In this document: positions 10,024-62,503 of the stretch, one piece after another
Position numbering within the stretch: position 1 is the first letter of the stretch
How the letters are laid out: each line of letters begins with the position of its first letter
IMG/VR virus record: IMGVR_UViG_3300020573_000227
Location: 1 to 64,000 of that record
DNA: 64,000 nt
Reading direction: 5' to 3' (one strand)
Source of the DNA: a virus
Made by a program: the position numbers and the translations under genes
The notes under the pieces: generated by a model
The model's input: only the letters and a program-made list of their open reading frames with translations
Databases searched by the model: none
What the model was told of the DNA's origin: nothing

Positions 10024-11250
10024 ATGTCAAAAATTAAAATTTTAGCAATTCCATCGGATAAACATGGTGTGGGTAAATTCAGAATAATGGACCCATATAC
10101 TTTTATTGGTGAAAAACATTCAGATGATGTTCACGTGGACATTACATTTAACGCAGAAGATAACGACGAATACTTTTTAAATTACGATATTGTAGTTTTT
10201 CACTCCTTTATTCATCAAACAACTCACGATTCTAATGTTAACAGAATAAAATGGTTAAAATCAAAGGGTATCAAGGTTATCATGGATATTGATGATTTAT
10301 GGTTTGTTGACCAACGTCACCCAATGTATCATCAAATTAAAGCATCAAGAATTGGTGAAATGAAAATCGAAATGATGAGGTTAGTTGATGCGATAACAAC
10401 CACAACATCCATTTTTGCAAAAACAATTATGGATAGATTAGGTGTGAAAAACGTTCAAATTTTCCCAAATGCGGTTAATGAGGATGAGTCACAATTCCAA
10501 GTGAATACAACTAAATCAGATAAAGTCAGATTTGGTTGGTTAGGCGGGTCATCACATTTACACGATTTAGAACTGATGTCAAACGGTATTTCATCAACAC
10601 ATTATTCATTTAAAGATAAGGCTCAATTTGTATTATGTGGTTTTGATTTAAGAGGTACGGTTACTGAAATGGCACCTAATGGTGAAAAGAGACAAAGACC
10701 TATTCAACCTTTAGAAACTGTTTGGTATAAATACGAAAAATTCTTTACAGACAATTATAAAGTTCTGAGTGAAGAATATAAAAATTATTTACATAACTTT
10801 ACAGAGACACCTCCATTCAACGATGAAAATGAACCATACAGAAGAAGATGGACTAAAGAAATTAATAGTTACGCGACTAACTATAACACTTTTGATGTTT
10901 CATTGGCGCCATTAGTTGATTCTCTTTTTAATGGTAACAAATCCCAATTAAAAGTTATTGAGGCTGGTTTCCATAAAAAGGCGATTATTGCAAGTGATGT
11001 TGACCCATATACTATAGATTTAATATCCGCGGTGGATAACGGAGTTTTAAATAATAAAGGAAACGCCCTATTAGTTAACCCTAAGAGAAATCATAAAGAT
11101 TGGGCAAAACACATGAAACGTTTAATTGAAAATCCTAATATGATTGAAGATTTAGGTAATAGATTATACGAGACAGTAAAAGACAAATATTCATTAAAAA
11201 ATGTTTGTAATGACAGAGTACAATTTTTCAAAACAATTATAAATAAATAA
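10024..11250 (+). CDS. Glycosyltransferase, GT-B fold (GT4-like)
   Basis: DIDDLW; FGWLGGSSH; DVSLAPL...FNGNKSQLKVIEAG...IIASDV. Confidence 0.8.
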   Translation: MSKIKILAIPSDKHGVGKFRIMDPYTFIGEKHSDDVHVDITFNAEDNDEYFLNYDIVVFHSFIHQTTHDSNVNRIKWLKSKGIKVIMDIDDLWFVDQRHPMYHQIKASRIGEMKIEMMRLVDAITTTTSIFAKTIMDRLGVKNVQIFPNAVNEDESQFQVNTTKSDKVRFGWLGGSSHLHDLELMSNGISSTHYSFKDKAQFVLCGFDLRGTVTEMAPNGEKRQRPIQPLETVWYKYEKFFTDNYKVLSEEYKNYLHNFTETPPFNDENEPYRRRWTKEINSYATNYNTFDVSLAPLVDSLFNGNKSQLKVIEAGFHKKAIIASDVDPYTIDLISAVDNGVLNNKGNALLVNPKRNHKDWAKHMKRLIENPNMIEDLGNRLYETVKDKYSLKNVCNDRVQFFKTIINK

Positions 11251-58400: not shown

Positions 58401-58472
58401 GCCTCTTAAGCATTGCAGGCGATGCGCATGACTTGTAATCATGATAACTCGGTTCGATTCCGGGCGGAGGCT
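58401..58472 (+). tRNA. trnT: tRNA-Thr(UGU)
   Basis: CATGA-CTTGTAA-TCATG anticodon arm; CTCGG-TTCGATT-CCGGG T arm; one acceptor mismatch. Confidence 0.85.
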
Positions 58473-58662
58473 CAACAGGTGACGACGGTGGTGGAACCCC
58501 ACTGTCTATAAATCTCAACACCCGCCTTGATTCGCGGTATTATAGCGGTGAGAGTAGAGTTACTACAAGTCGGGAGTAATTAACCCAATGACGAAAGTGT
58601 AACCACAGATATAGAGATATATTTGTTATGATGTACGAAAGGGTACGAAAAACCTGTAATTT

Positions 58663-58736
58663 GGATTGTTGGTGAAGTTGGTTATCATGCCACCCTGTCA
58701 CGGTGGAGTTCACGGGTTCGAGTCCCGTACAGTCCG
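58663..58736 (+). tRNA. trnD: tRNA-Asp(GUC)
   Basis: GGATTGT/ACAGTCC acceptor; CCACC-CTGTCAC-GGTGG. Confidence 0.92.
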
Positions 58737-58745
58737 CAAAATATT

Positions 58746-58831
58746 GGAAGGATGGCAGAGTTGGTCTATCGCGTCGGTCTTGAAAACCGAAGTACTGAAA
58801 GGTACCGTGGGTTCGAATCCTACTCCTTCCG
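58746..58831 (+). tRNA. trnS: tRNA-Ser(UGA)
   Basis: GGAAGGA/TCCTTCC; TCGGT-CTTGAAA-ACCGA; long variable arm. Confidence 0.93.
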
Positions 58832-58930
58832 CAAAGAATTAACTAAGATACCGTAAAATCGGTAGGTGGTGATTCCAGATTTATCTGTGAACCATTTAAA
58901 CCCTGAAAGCAATGTTAGTTCTTTTTTTTT

Positions 58931-59002
58931 GCTCGGTTCGACTAGTGGTTAGGTCACCACCCTTTCACGGTGGTTGCACGGGTTCGAATCCCGTACCGAG
59001 TA
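58931..59002 (+). tRNA. trnE: tRNA-Glu(UUC)
   Basis: GCTCGGT/ACCGAGT; CCACC-CTTTCAC-GGTGG. Confidence 0.92.
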
Positions 59003-59081
59003 CAATATTTTTTTTATATCAAGATATTGATTTACAATATTTTATTCTGTATATTTATCATATTATTAATATTTATAATAT

Positions 59082-59384
59082 ATGATAGATAAAATCACAT
59101 TATCGTTAATGTTATTTTTTAACACATTAACATCATCTATCGACCCAAGTCTTTCCGATGAAAGAAAGTCAGTCAATCAAATAAAAAAAGAGATTAAGTC
59201 TCTTGAAAGAAAGATTGAATGGGTTGAAGTAACAGATGAGAATTACGCTAGCAGGGCCGTCAAAACCAAAGAAATCACGGACGAGATTACCAAATTGAAT
59301 GGTAAAATTGTAAAGATTGAGAAGGTAGCAATTTTAAAAGAGAAATGGGCTAAGGAAGATTCCTTAACCAAATCGAAAAAATGA
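59082..59384 (+). CDS. Putative exported coiled-coil protein
   Basis: Hydrophobic N-terminus followed by heptad pattern. Confidence 0.55.
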   Translation: MIDKITLSLMLFFNTLTSSIDPSLSDERKSVNQIKKEIKSLERKIEWVEVTDENYASRAVKTKEITDEITKLNGKIVKIEKVAILKEKWAKEDSLTKSKK

Positions 59385-59830
59385 AAAAAATTTTTTTAGT
59401 GCTGACGTTACTTTTGGGAGTGGAAGTCGTGGCAAATGGACAAGAGTGGTTTATAACCGCCACTCGAAAAGGCGGTCCATCAGATGGTTATATAACAGGT
59501 GGTTTTATGAAAAAAGGTTGGGGGTTCTATGCTGGTCTTCCTTATGGTGAAATAGGTGGTACTAATGGTGGAATTTCAATTCCTCCTGGCGTCAACACTA
59601 AAACAGGAAATGTGTCTGATAACATGAAGTTTGGTGTTCTTAGACAAGTAAAAGAGGACAAGGCGATTGTTGGATTTGGATTACAACCAACGATTGATGG
59701 TAACAAACCAAATTTTCTTATAATGTACAATCCACTTAGACCAAGTAGTGTTTTAAATCTATGGACAATTGGTAATATGGTTGGTGATGATTTTACATTA
59801 GGACTTGGATTATCGTATAAAGTCAAATAA
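59381..59830 (+). CDS. Small putative outer-membrane beta-barrel protein
   Basis: Signal peptide ending ANG-Q; Gly-rich strands; ends LGLGLSYKVK. Confidence 0.6.
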   Translation: MKKIFLVLTLLLGVEVVANGQEWFITATRKGGPSDGYITGGFMKKGWGFYAGLPYGEIGGTNGGISIPPGVNTKTGNVSDNMKFGVLRQVKEDKAIVGFGLQPTIDGNKPNFLIMYNPLRPSSVLNLWTIGNMVGDDFTLGLGLSYKVK

Positions 59831-59945
59831 AAATTTTAGTTAATTTAATTCCCCGAACAAACTAAAAAATGTTCGGGGTTTTTTTATACCATATTTTTTT
59901 GTTATATTTAAATTATAGTTCTTTGATGTATTGGAAAAACAAAAT

Positions 59946-60030
59946 GCCTGGGTGATGAAATGGTATACATGACAGACTTAAAATCTGTTGAGCAGAAACG
60001 CTCGTGCGGGTTCAAGTCCCGCCCCAGGTA
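59946..60030 (+). tRNA. trnL: tRNA-Leu(UAA)
   Basis: GCCTGGG/CCCAGGT; ACAGA-CTTAAAA-TCTGT; long variable arm. Confidence 0.92.
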
Positions 60031-60182
60031 CAAATGTAATGACTCAGAAATGAGTGACGGAACGGACGCTATGTATGAAATGGAAACTTTTGAATCACGT
60101 ACAAAGGTGATAATTAGACACAAACCGTACAGACATTACATTTAAACACTATCGTTCTTTGAAAATAAAGGAGAAAATTAAT

Positions 60183-60431
60183 ATGGACATATTATCATTT
60201 ATTTTAGGAATGTCAATAGTTGTGGTTATCGCAGTTGCGGTAGTTGCGGTTATTGCCTTTGTTAAGGTTAATAAAACTAACAAAGAAATTGAAACGATTC
60301 ATACCATTATGGGCAATGAATCTGAAAGGTCGCATAGAGAGCGTGAAGAAGCAATTCAAAATGTTTATAGAACATTAGATTCACGACTTGATAAACTTGA
60401 GAGTAAAATAACAACAAGCCGTAAGGCATAA
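60183..60431 (+). CDS. Single-TM coiled-coil protein inside the tRNA array
   Basis: ATG 60183 MDILSFILGMSIVVVIAV...; AAGGAG 9 nt upstream. Confidence 0.65.
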   Translation: MDILSFILGMSIVVVIAVAVVAVIAFVKVNKTNKEIETIHTIMGNESERSHREREEAIQNVYRTLDSRLDKLESKITTSRKA

Positions 60432-60471
60432 CGATTAAATAAAAACTTTCAAAGACGATAGTGTTATTTTT

Positions 60472-60545
60472 GGTTCCGTAGCTCAGTTGGATAGAGCAAC
60501 ATCCTTCTAAGATGTGGGTCTTTGGTTCGAATCCAAACGGGATCA
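60472..60545 (+). tRNA. trnR: tRNA-Arg(UCU)
   Basis: GGTTCCG/CGGGATC; ACATC-CTTCTAA-GATGT. Confidence 0.92.
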
Positions 60546-60555
60546 CGTAAATTTT

Positions 60556-60629
60556 GGACTTGTAGCTCACTCGGTTAGAGCGGCACACTCATAATGTGAA
60601 GGTAATAGGTTCGATTCCTATCTGGTCCA
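60556..60629 (+). tRNA. tRNA with CAU anticodon (probably Ile2, possibly elongator Met)
   Basis: GGACTTG/CTGGTCC; CACA-CTCATAA-TGTG; lacks initiator features. Confidence 0.8.
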
Positions 60630-60825
60630 CAAACAATTAACTCATGGGTCTCCGATGGAAGTCCGCAAGAAAAATAGATGTTTTTCATCCATCAAAAAAT
60701 TACCATAGAGACCGCTAAATCGAGTTAGTGAAAATCTACATTCTCATTGGTAATCATTCATGACACCTACCGGTGGTTCCACACTAAGGTTATGTGAGGC
60801 TTCGGCTGATAAAAGGGTGTTATAT

Positions 60826-60976
60826 TGTAGTGTGACGAAATTGGCAAACGTGCCCTCCTGTCTCGGGGGTGTGGACAAAGAAATAGATTGATAATATTAG
60901 GGGGTAGACCACCAGCTTGCAAGCGTCATGTTATCAGTTGAATCTCCACTTGGTGGTTCGAACCCATCCACTACAG
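60826..60976 (+). ncRNA. 151-nt tRNA-like RNA with 82-nt variable arm
   Basis: TGTAGTG/CACTACA acceptor; Leu-like D arm; CCCTC-CTGTCTC-GGGGG; GGTGG-TTCGAAC-CCATC T arm. Confidence 0.75.
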
Positions 60977-60993
60977 CATTAAATTTTTAAAAT

Positions 60994-61347
60994 ATGATAA
61001 AAGAACAAATTATAAACCTCATCTATTCTCTAATCTTATTTTTATTAGGATCGGTAGGACATTGGTACATTATGTATTGGCAGTTTAAATTACCTAATTG
61101 GATTAAAACCCCATGGCCATATATGATTTCTATTGTATGTACGTTCTTATGGATTTTGGCGTCACATTATGGTGTAAAGGCATTCAATGGTGAAATGTGG
61201 AGTAACCGATTTTTATTCTTTGTAACCGGTATCGTCATTGCAGCAATGTTATATCCATATCATTTTGGTCAACCGTTTACCGTTAAAACTATGGTACAAT
61301 TAATATTGGCGTTTACAATAATTTTAATTTCACTTTTTTGGAAATAA
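60994..61347 (+). CDS. Four-TM membrane protein (DMT/EamA-like half)
   Basis: Four hydrophobic helices in 117 aa. Confidence 0.55.
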   Translation: MIKEQIINLIYSLILFLLGSVGHWYIMYWQFKLPNWIKTPWPYMISIVCTFLWILASHYGVKAFNGEMWSNRFLFFVTGIVIAAMLYPYHFGQPFTVKTMVQLILAFTIILISLFWK

Positions 61348-61397
61348 ATTTTTTTATTTGATTTTTATTTCTTATATTTTATTATAACCTATTAACT

Positions 61398-61619
61398 ATG
61401 AAATGTATTAAAGCAATTAAAGAAACCAAATCCTACAAATTAGGAGAAATTCGTAGAACTGATGATATTGATGCCAACCAAAAAGTGGTAAGTGGTGTTT
61501 GGAAGTTTATTCCAAAATCAGAATGGAAGGGTGAAAAGAAAACAAAAGTCATTGAGGTTCAACACGATATGGGTGGTTCTTATGAAGTTAAGAACGAAAA
61601 GAAAAAAAATAAAAAATAA
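61398..61619 (+). CDS. Small basic hypothetical protein
   Basis: 73 aa; WKFIPKSEWK. Confidence 0.55.
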   Translation: MKCIKAIKETKSYKLGEIRRTDDIDANQKVVSGVWKFIPKSEWKGEKKTKVIEVQHDMGGSYEVKNEKKKNKK

Positions 61620-61700: not shown

Positions 61701-62503
61701 TTGGCCGCCTATGGTCGATTAAAATAAACCATGAAAGTGGGATAAAGTGACGAACCTTTGGTTGAGGTAAGTTGCGGTTTCAGAAATGGAACTCGAGTAG
61801 GCAAGTGGAGTATCGTTGAACCTTAAGTACTGAGGGTAACACTTTAGGGAAAGTGGTTTGACGACCAAGCAATCCGAGTTGTTTGGTTGAGGTGGGAACA
61901 CCAATAAGAATAATCCATAGAGTTATTACAAGAAGTAGGACCTCCAATCTTACAATTGTGTGATTCAATATGATGGGAATCTTAAAACCGAAAGGTATGG
62001 TGAAGTACGAGTGGTGTCGTTATCATCCTTTATTAGACTCTACCAAGGGTTTAGTACTGAAGGGGTCCAAAAATATGGTGGCAGGGATGTTACAGAGAGT
62101 AGTTTAGTATCGAGTCGTTCAAAAGATGGCTTGGCTGGTCGACGAACCGCTACTTTCCAAATTCGGAAACTAAATTTTGTTAATTCAGGTTTAACAACTT
62201 AAACATAACAAGAAAAAGTGTTCGTCAGTCGTTGTAGACAGGTGGCTACATAGTCGTGAGGGGTTCACGGCCACAAAGGGTCTCAAGCCCGATGTGATTT
62301 TTAAAAAAGTTCTCTAGACCCGCAAGGTTGAATCAGGGAGGCATCTTTGATGAGTAATGAGTATTAAAAGAGTATATAACGACTCAAGGATTGGTTAATC
62401 TAATTGACCGCCGCTGATTGGTACTACTCAAAAGGTAGTGGAAAGGGGAAGAATCAAATAATGTCCCTAAGTCAATTATTAAGACATGTATTCTCAGTGT
62501 TTT
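61701..62503 (+). ncRNA. Large structured ncRNA, GOLLD-like (~800 nt)
   Basis: Purine/GC-enriched, no credible ORF, many hairpins with GNRA loops, long-range helix 62227-62236/62375-62384, terminal AAGACA-TGTATTCTCAG-TGTTTT hairpin, next to tRNAs. Confidence 0.65.

Follow-up and report, generated by a model that had tools for sequence, protein, structure and literature searches.

We analyzed a 64,000-nucleotide (nt) stretch of viral DNA (positions 1 to 64,000 of IMG/VR record IMGVR_UViG_3300020573_000227; hereafter, the window) and found that a tRNA-like RNA encoded at positions 60826–60976 belongs to a family of RNAs with a giant variable arm. The family is uncatalogued, is native to Bacteroidota (Chitinophagaceae, Saprospiraceae, and Cytophagales), and has been captured by their lake phages. 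Family-wide conservation of structure, together with an anticodon-like loop that departs from those of decoding tRNAs, makes it very probable that the element is a functional, non-decoding tRNA-like RNA. A large, strongly conserved family with hundreds of phage and bacterial members would thereby join the short list of tRNA-derived RNAs that work outside decoding. A wider reading, which we regard as doubtful when taken as a whole, is that the RNA is a non-decoding scaffold for asparagine synthesis under an AsnC-like regulator, and that lake phages took it, deregulated it, and made it a self-pairing dimer within islands of tRNA genes and GOLLD, a large phage RNA.

A conserved family in lake phages and Bacteroidota

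More than 119 IMG/VR contigs contain an exact match to the 17-mer of the anticodon-like arm, and patterns placed outside this arm identified more than 120 further contigs, bringing the family to a total of more than 200 IMG/VR phage contigs. The apparent invariance of the 17-mer was rejected as circular because the 17-mer was the search query; in the contigs found with arm-independent patterns, the stem varies and only the GUCUC of the loop is fixed. The copy in the nearest record, a phage contig of 316 kb, is 94% identical and shows compensatory changes in the long helix and the second hairpin of the variable arm. The window and its relatives come from freshwater/lake metagenomes. The family pattern is also present in at least 120 Bacteroidota genomes in a scan of one genome per species, and among the matches listed, all those with titles were Bacteroidota (Chitinophagaceae, Saprospiraceae, Cytophagaceae/Spirosomataceae, Aquirufa, Runella, Niastella, Puia, and Chitinophaga).

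We built a covariance model (R1) from 32 sequences. R1 assigns 153 bits to the element, vs 45.6 bits for the tRNA-Leu and 42 bits for the tRNA-Asp of the window; family members score 80–157 bits and true tRNAs at most 55 bits. With R1, each phage locus yields one copy, and the window a single one. In an alignment of 80 distinct phage sequences, 97.7% of the cells were paired and 31/41 pairs were changed on both sides, whereas slid controls were 43%–52% paired and none of 500 shuffles matched the level of covariation of the alignment; fitting the alignment to R1 gives the structure some advantage, but the excess over the controls is very large. The homolog search and the check for covariation in the arm that the preliminary description of this stretch had proposed thus revealed a large family. 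Because compensatory changes are found family-wide, the possibility raised there that the element is a decaying pseudo-tRNA is excluded. The support for the element is comparative and not energetic, because its single-sequence folding energy is ordinary (z −0.86).

The family appears to have escaped description. BLAST against GenBank phages gave no match for the element, Rfam 15 is without such a family, and a full-text literature search found no description of it. A catalogue of viral structured RNAs lists some tRNA-like candidates, which could not be matched to the giant-armed family (PMC10690425). Within the window, Rfam 15 found the tRNAs and GOLLD, and at the element it found nothing, whether at the gathering score or at E ≤ 10. 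ARAGORN, the tRNA finder to which the preliminary description had also pointed, recovered seven true tRNAs at 58401–60630 but made no call at the element.

The sequence bears out most of the anatomy described previously: a 7-bp acceptor, a D loop of the Leu/Ser type, a normal T arm, the loop CUGUCUC, and a variable region of 82 nt, together at 60826–60976. The arm differs in one respect. Its 12-bp helix and two capping hairpins stand, but the single 5-bp stem GUGGA/UCCAC proposed at its base does not; covariation instead gives a 4-bp helix, a 4-nt bulge, and a 3-bp helix. All features are on the + strand:

60826–60976, +: whole tRNA-like RNA, 151 nt, from U1 through the discriminator G73 (R1, 153 bits, E 2e-38, full model length)
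60826–60832, +: 5' strand of the acceptor, UGUAGUG, paired with 60969–60975 (CACUACA); covariation in 7/7 pairs
60835–60851, +: D arm, 3-bp stem and 11-nt loop AAAUUGGCAAA of the tRNA-Leu type, with G18 G19; 2/3 stem pairs covary
60853–60869, +: anticodon-like arm, stem CCCUC/GGGGG; the stem covaries (CCCAC/GUGGG, CCUCC/GGAGG, UCCUC/GAGGA)
60858–60864, +: anticodon-like loop CUGUCUC, with G34 U35 C36 U37 C38
60870–60951, +: giant variable arm, 82 nt; compensatory changes in Pa, Pb, and Pc
60871–60874 with 60946–60949, +: helix Pa, 4 bp
60875–60878, +: 4-nt bulge between Pa and Pb
60879–60881 with 60943–60945, +: helix Pb, 3 bp
60882–60885 and 60940–60942, +: conserved internal loop of the arm
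60886–60897 with 60928–60939, +: helix Pc, 12 bp
60901–60913, +: hairpin H1, GGGGUAGACCACC, core GGG[UWGA]CC(A)C with a bulged A; the outer pair covaries (G-C / U-A)
60915–60924, +: hairpin H2, GCUUGCAAGC, a perfect 10-nt palindrome typical of phage-type copies
60952–60968, +: T arm, GGUGG-UUCGAAC-CCAUC; 4/5 pairs covary
60977–60978, +: encoded C74 and then A, full CCA absent; C74 in 262/262 members

The acceptor is a perfect 7-bp helix that begins with U1-A72, and G73 lies at 60976. The D-arm motif GAAAUUGGCAGAC is common to the element and to true tRNA-Leu genes on other phage contigs, and the T loop is UUCGAAU in 73/80 sequences. Across the family, the arm follows one plan: a 4-bp helix, a bulge of 4–5 nt beginning with A, a 3-bp helix, an internal loop of conserved sequence, and a helix of 8–12 bp, with a three-way junction at the tip. 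The core of H1 is unchanged in 78/80 phage sequences. Bacterial copies have the same core and a variable hairpin ahead of H1, usually without the palindrome. Tandem arrays of two to four members occur in bacterial genomes (L332:502–1048, L299:4047–4160, L278:6171–6286, and L287:1512–1630). Short tandem paralogs of 112–119 nt in bacteria keep the core, Pa, Pb, and the internal loop and are without H1, so the constant part of the arm is its base and internal loop.

Identity elements and the decoding question

We surveyed identity elements in 262 distinct members (149 phage and 113 bacterial). U1-A72 was found in 261/262 and G2-C71 in 258/262, and G73 and C74 were each present in all 262. The loop is NNGUCUC in about 258/262 members, and U37 occurs in about 260/262, the window copy included. 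C33 is present in about 31% of phage members vs 11% of bacterial members, 89% of which have U33. The cloverleaf and the elbow made by G18 G19 and the T loop are accompanied by covariation in all four arms.

Asp identity depends on five strong determinants (G73, G34, U35, C36, and C38), and bacterial tRNA-Asp strictly conserves the pairs G1-C72 and G2-C71; U1-A72 enables the amidotransferase to convert Asp-tRNA(Asn), whereas G1-C72 blocks amidation (PMC9976931). Judged from sequence, all five determinants for the aspartyl-tRNA synthetase (AspRS) are present in the element and are near-invariant across the family, and the element has U1-A72 where tRNA-Asp has G1-C72. These determinants and U1-A72 together give the family a full AspRS set and a first pair that is permissive for the amidotransferase GatCAB. 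The tRNA-Asn of a carrier Aquirufa (L376:1480–1554) has the same U1-A72, G73, and C74 end as the family. Phage tRNA-Asn(GUU) genes have G1-C72 in at least 28 of 42 distinct genes and U1-A72 in only 6 (loci L005–L247).

With its intact cloverleaf, its GUC anticodon, and G73, the RNA might be taken for a true decoding isoacceptor of tRNA-Asp that tolerates an exotic arm, and the prevalence of U33 in bacterial members would suit such a role. The processing context is also shared with true tRNAs: C74 and then A, never full CCA, follow all seven true tRNAs (58401–60630) and the element, and this common N73-C74-A trailer indicates a shared 3' maturation context. With its 7-bp acceptor, its G18 G19/T-loop elbow, and this trailer, the element retains the features required for tRNA maturation. 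We nonetheless consider decoding very unlikely. U37 is near-universal, nearly a third of phage members have C33, the strictly conserved G1-C72 of bacterial tRNA-Asp (PMC9976931) is replaced by U1-A72, and the arm is about four times the size of any class II arm; in particular, U37 and an arm of about 80 nt make ribosomal use unlikely. The same array contains a canonical tRNA-Asp(GUC) with G1-C72, which ARAGORN places at 58663–58737 and which the preliminary description had located at 58663, and in bacteria a dedicated transcription regulator lies alongside the RNA. The family as a whole lacks both the canonical tRNA loop (U33 with a purine at position 37) and G1-C72, and it does not match tRNA-Leu either, having G73 in 262/262 members and GUC in the loop. 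The earlier view that the element is not a decoding tRNA is thus supported by U37, by C33, by the arm, and by the canonical tRNA-Asp nearby.

Two other roles for the loop and its stem were considered and rejected. An anti-Shine-Dalgarno mimic (CCUCC) is ruled out by variation in the stem sequence. Kissing of the loop GUC with the GAC in H1 is ruled out by the pairing of the C of GAC within H1 and by covariation of the outer H1 pair, and further by the short bacterial paralogs that are without H1.

An AsnC-like regulator, gatB, and asparagine

In 68/115 bacterial loci, the RNA is preceded, at about 157 nt and on the opposite strand, by a divergent gene for a 156-aa protein. The protein is a regulator of the Lrp/AsnC family: its best NCBIfam model is AsnC (163 bits vs 67 bits for the next family), and its best match in the PDB is E. 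coli AsnC (2cg4, E 3e-33). For co-occurrence, we sampled 151 Bacteroidota genomes evenly. Fifteen of them have the RNA, and one further genome has a partial copy (80 bits, at a contig end) that adjoins the regulator. The AsnC-like gene was present in 32/151 genomes and gatB, above cut-off, in 126/151. Of the 32 genomes with the AsnC-like gene, 16 have gatB, and this set coincides exactly with the 16 RNA-bearing genomes; the RNA is absent from the 16 that lack gatB. In 6/15 RNA-positive genomes the regulator is away from the RNA, on another contig or at a distance, yet it is present in all six. Fisher tests of the co-occurrence gave p = 4e-13 and 3e-9, values that are uncorrected for shared ancestry.

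The mechanism that we favor is put forward tentatively, as a possibility that draws on the observed identity elements, genomic context, and co-occurrence. Host AspRS would charge the RNA with Asp, and host GatCAB would then turn the RNA-bound Asp into Asn away from the ribosome, with the outcome that a supply of asparagine, or an asparagine donor, is uncoupled from translation. In bacteria, the AsnC-like regulator would control the RNA in response to a putative asparagine ligand. The phage copy would be expressed from the tRNA island without the regulator, so that it might run regardless of host feedback, and any asparagine released could supply a phage proteome rich in Asn. In the open reading frames (ORFs) of the window, 6.8% of residues are Asn, vs 4.6% in the bacterial loci. 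The combination of the AspRS set, a GatCAB-permissive U1-A72, a non-decoding loop, and co-occurrence with the AsnC-like gene and gatB provides a concrete and cheaply testable hypothesis; if it is true, tRNA-dependent amino-acid synthesis can be uncoupled from translation.

Several observations weigh against this proposal. The score of the regulator, 163 bits, is under the NCBIfam AsnC cut-off of 227, and in gatB-negative genomes the AsnC-like homologs adjoin genes such as those for saccharopine dehydrogenase and a Zn peptidase, not Asn genes; given these unrelated neighbors, the Asn specificity of the regulator is only putative. The co-occurrence table ignores phylogeny and may reflect few lineages or independent events. 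The presence of gatB in every RNA-positive genome is weak evidence by itself because gatB is common (126/151), and the association between the RNA and gatB has p 0.08. Synthetases of the asnB type are found in 12/15 RNA-positive and 12/15 RNA-negative genomes, and the asparaginyl-tRNA synthetase (AsnRS, asnS) in all 30 genomes examined (15 RNA-positive and 15 RNA-negative), so the RNA is not a substitute for a missing pathway. AspRS and GatB were not found in five large RNA-bearing phage records. GatCAB also reads the D loop (where U20a is an antideterminant), and in this family, U1-A72 notwithstanding, the D loop is of the Leu type and in many phage copies is expanded by inserted hairpins. 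As a class II synthetase, AspRS nears its tRNA from the variable-loop side, so an arm of 80 nt might clash with it.

Complementarity between the RNA and the asparagine pathway was expected and was not seen: asnB is equally frequent with and without the RNA, asnS is universal, and asnA is absent from the RNA-positive genomes and nearly absent from the whole 151-genome sample. An Asn_synthase-domain protein is encoded in two of the five large RNA-bearing phage records; in two complete RNA-bearing jumbo-phage records, such a protein has 504 aa (G164:C1:204352–205047 and G172:C1:40807–41505). The remaining neighbors of the bacterial RNA (TrmB, an ABC permease, GT2, and SufB) are lineage-specific, with no conserved transferase gene among them. 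In 20 bacterial loci (e.g., L272:3756–4490), the RNA is followed after about 260 nt by a same-strand gene for TrmB, the methyltransferase that makes m7G46 in the variable loop of tRNAs; this arrangement may be lineage synteny only.

The identity elements (PMC9976931) would serve equally well if AspRS charged the RNA for some purpose outside Asn synthesis, either as an aspartyl (or other aminoacyl) donor for a tRNA-dependent transferase or as a charge-sensing regulator under the Lrp/AsnC-family protein. Coupling to a regulator of the feast/famine type and the presence of bacterial tandem paralogs with differing distal arms are in keeping with such a role. We think it distinctly unlikely, as the RNA has no conserved transferase neighbor, and as the restriction of the RNA to gatB-positive genomes would be left unexplained.

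The bacterial context also bears on whether the RNA could be a decoy. The preliminary description had suggested a decoy for an anticodon nuclease or a synthetase, a scaffold displaying an aptamer, or a substrate of the phage RNA ligase; none of these has direct support, and the family is native to Bacteroidota chromosomes. In its fullest form, the decoy model holds that the RNA mimics tRNA-Asp, or any tRNA with G34-U35 (such as those for Asp, Asn, His, or Tyr), and titrates a tRNA-binding protein while escaping translation. The target might be AspRS, the queuine-inserting transglycosylase, or a host-defense anticodon nuclease that cuts at YGU, in which case the RNA would be a phage counter-defense. 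G34, U35, C36, and C38 are fixed while positions 32–33 vary, a normal tRNA-Asp is encoded in the same array, the gene is located in a phage tRNA island, and the palindromic H2 and D-loop inserts that are specific to phages suggest a phage-tuned function. However, we judge a decoy to be unlikely on balance. A chromosomal family, mostly single genes or small tandem clusters, with a dedicated regulator in many Bacteroidota would be odd for anti-defense; mimicry of an anticodon loop alone would not require strict U1-A72, G73, and C74 or a whole L-shape; and we found no linked nuclease or defense gene. That the family is chromosomal and coupled to GatCAB and an AsnC-like regulator argues for a function in the cell, linked to amino acids, over a decoy invented by phages.

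Phage-type copies, GOLLD, and known tRNA-like RNAs

In phage loci, the RNA sits within large tRNA arrays, and phage-type copies are marked by palindromes. A perfect palindrome of at least 6 nt is found within 16 nt after H1 in 72/79 phage copies vs 13/101 bacterial copies. H2 is a spacerless perfect palindrome in 43/50 distinct versions vs 15% of shuffles, and the palindromes vary by lineage (GCUUGCAAGC, GCCGGCCGGC, AGCCGGCU, GCUAGCUAGC, GCUGCAGC, and others), so that self-complementarity is kept and sequence is not. For H2 of the window, the predicted energy is −1.5 kcal/mol for the hairpin vs −19.1 kcal/mol for the self-duplex; across copies, the predicted values are 0 to −4 kcal/mol for hairpins and −13 to −27 kcal/mol for self-duplexes. 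Two window RNAs are predicted to pair via H2 with −102.7 kcal/mol, vs 2 × −43.3 kcal/mol for the monomers. On these modeled energies, phage-type copies probably dimerize via H2. Many phage copies (L005, L011, L013, L133, L140, and others) also have a hairpin insert of 8–25 nt in the D loop, between A15 and G18, and these inserts are often perfect palindromes as well (GCGUACGC, GGAUAUAUCC, and GGUAGCUACC).

In the window, the element is followed after 1.1 kb by a GOLLD RNA gene, which is also on the + strand. Its match to the conserved 3' domain of GOLLD (RF02032) is full-length and spans 62095–62500 (302 bits, E 2e-85), and the variable 5' domain probably begins upstream of 62095. GOLLD is a separate gene, and the element itself has no GOLLD match. 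GOLLD was found in 13/25 large phage records with the RNA vs 1/10 tRNA-rich records without it (p 0.03), at a distance of about 0.1–5.5 kb from the RNA in 4/13 loci; this co-occurrence may reflect shared lineage only. GOLLD is found near phage tRNA islands and forms RNA cages (10.1101/2024.12.08.627333).

The palindromes and the company of GOLLD raise the possibility that the RNA is a structural component of a phage RNA island, a homodimer formed via the palindromic hairpin that acts as a partner or cargo of the GOLLD assembly. The excess of palindromes in phage copies, in many different sequences, the predicted dimer energy, the co-occurrence and proximity, and the literature on GOLLD cages and their link to tRNA (10.1101/2024.12.08.627333) all fit this idea, and the RNA would be a possible partner for GOLLD, itself an RNA without known function. 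We rate it as quite improbable. The co-occurrence may come from one phage lineage and from the placement of both genes in tRNA islands, GOLLD is missing from about half of the RNA-bearing records, and dimerization is a thermodynamic prediction only. Moreover, bacterial members have neither the palindrome nor GOLLD, so a structural role cannot be the core function of the family.

RNA libraries of two metatranscriptome studies yielded contigs that span the element at low depth and stop at 60967 and 60972, slightly short of its 3' end, and those of other family members have higher depth; as the data are contigs only, their depths and uncovered stretches are uninformative on expression level, and we take them as a weak hint that the element is expressed. 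Scans for sigma-70 promoters and terminators gave results at chance level, and the 195-nt spacer at 60631–60825 folds no better than shuffles. The ORFs neighboring the element gave no informative family matches. A stretch of 45–60 nt at about 61334–61393, between the ORFs at 60994–61347 and 61398–61619, recurs in the related 316-kb phage record as three more, widely separated copies (78%–88% identity; L002, L003, and L004) and could be an intergenic repeat that is dispersed, perhaps a promoter or terminator. Elsewhere, a tmRNA gene (RF00023, 83 bits) directly adjoins the tRNA-like RNA in a 287-kb phage record (L067:1511–1856), and two Rfam tRNA matches of 107 and 123 nt (34–38 bits) in a phage tRNA island (L029:10174–10280 and 10395–10517) may be more long-armed or intron-bearing tRNA-like genes. 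The element itself shows that jumbo lake phages keep more than decoders in their tRNA islands.

Among known RNAs, tRNA-Leu (RF00005) has the most similar body. It shares the cloverleaf, the 3-bp D stem, a virtually identical D loop AAAUUGGCAGA, and an arm that grows from the variable position, and it is the next-best match to R1 (45.6 bits). Unlike tRNA-Leu, the family has G73 in place of A73, NNGUCUC in place of a Leu anticodon, and an arm that reaches about 80 nt, contains a bulge and an internal loop, and ends in a three-way tip; it is missed by ARAGORN and Rfam. The five strong Asp determinants and G2-C71 are shared with tRNA-Asp(GUC) (PMC9976931), and U1-A72, G73, and C74 with the tRNA-Asn(GUU) of the host. 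By its sequence, the family would be a chimera of these two tRNAs on a class II body, from both of which it differs in having U37 for a purine and the giant arm.

Three groups of tRNA-like RNAs provide further comparisons. The T4 RNAs rnaC and rnaD (species 1 and 2 RNAs, AF158101) are likewise stable tRNA-like RNAs of unknown function inside a phage tRNA cluster, but homology is ruled out: the rnaC region scores 15.9 bits in R1 with filters off, vs 80–157 bits for members, and has no GUCUC loop. YrlA and other bacterial Y RNAs are non-coding, mimic tRNA, and use tRNA-processing enzymes, but the ends of YrlA form the Ro-binding stem and its tRNA-like part is internal, whereas the ends of the family form a normal acceptor (PMC4201824). 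The element has no Rfam match to support a relationship with YrlA, and rsr is not among the conserved neighbor families named. Finally, the allo-tRNAs that Mukai et al. reportedly described in 2017 from metagenomic data are non-canonical, with long variable arms, an 8/4 or 9/3 acceptor/T geometry, and assorted anticodons. The giant-armed family differs from them in that its geometry is the standard 7/5, its loop is fixed, and its arm is far larger.

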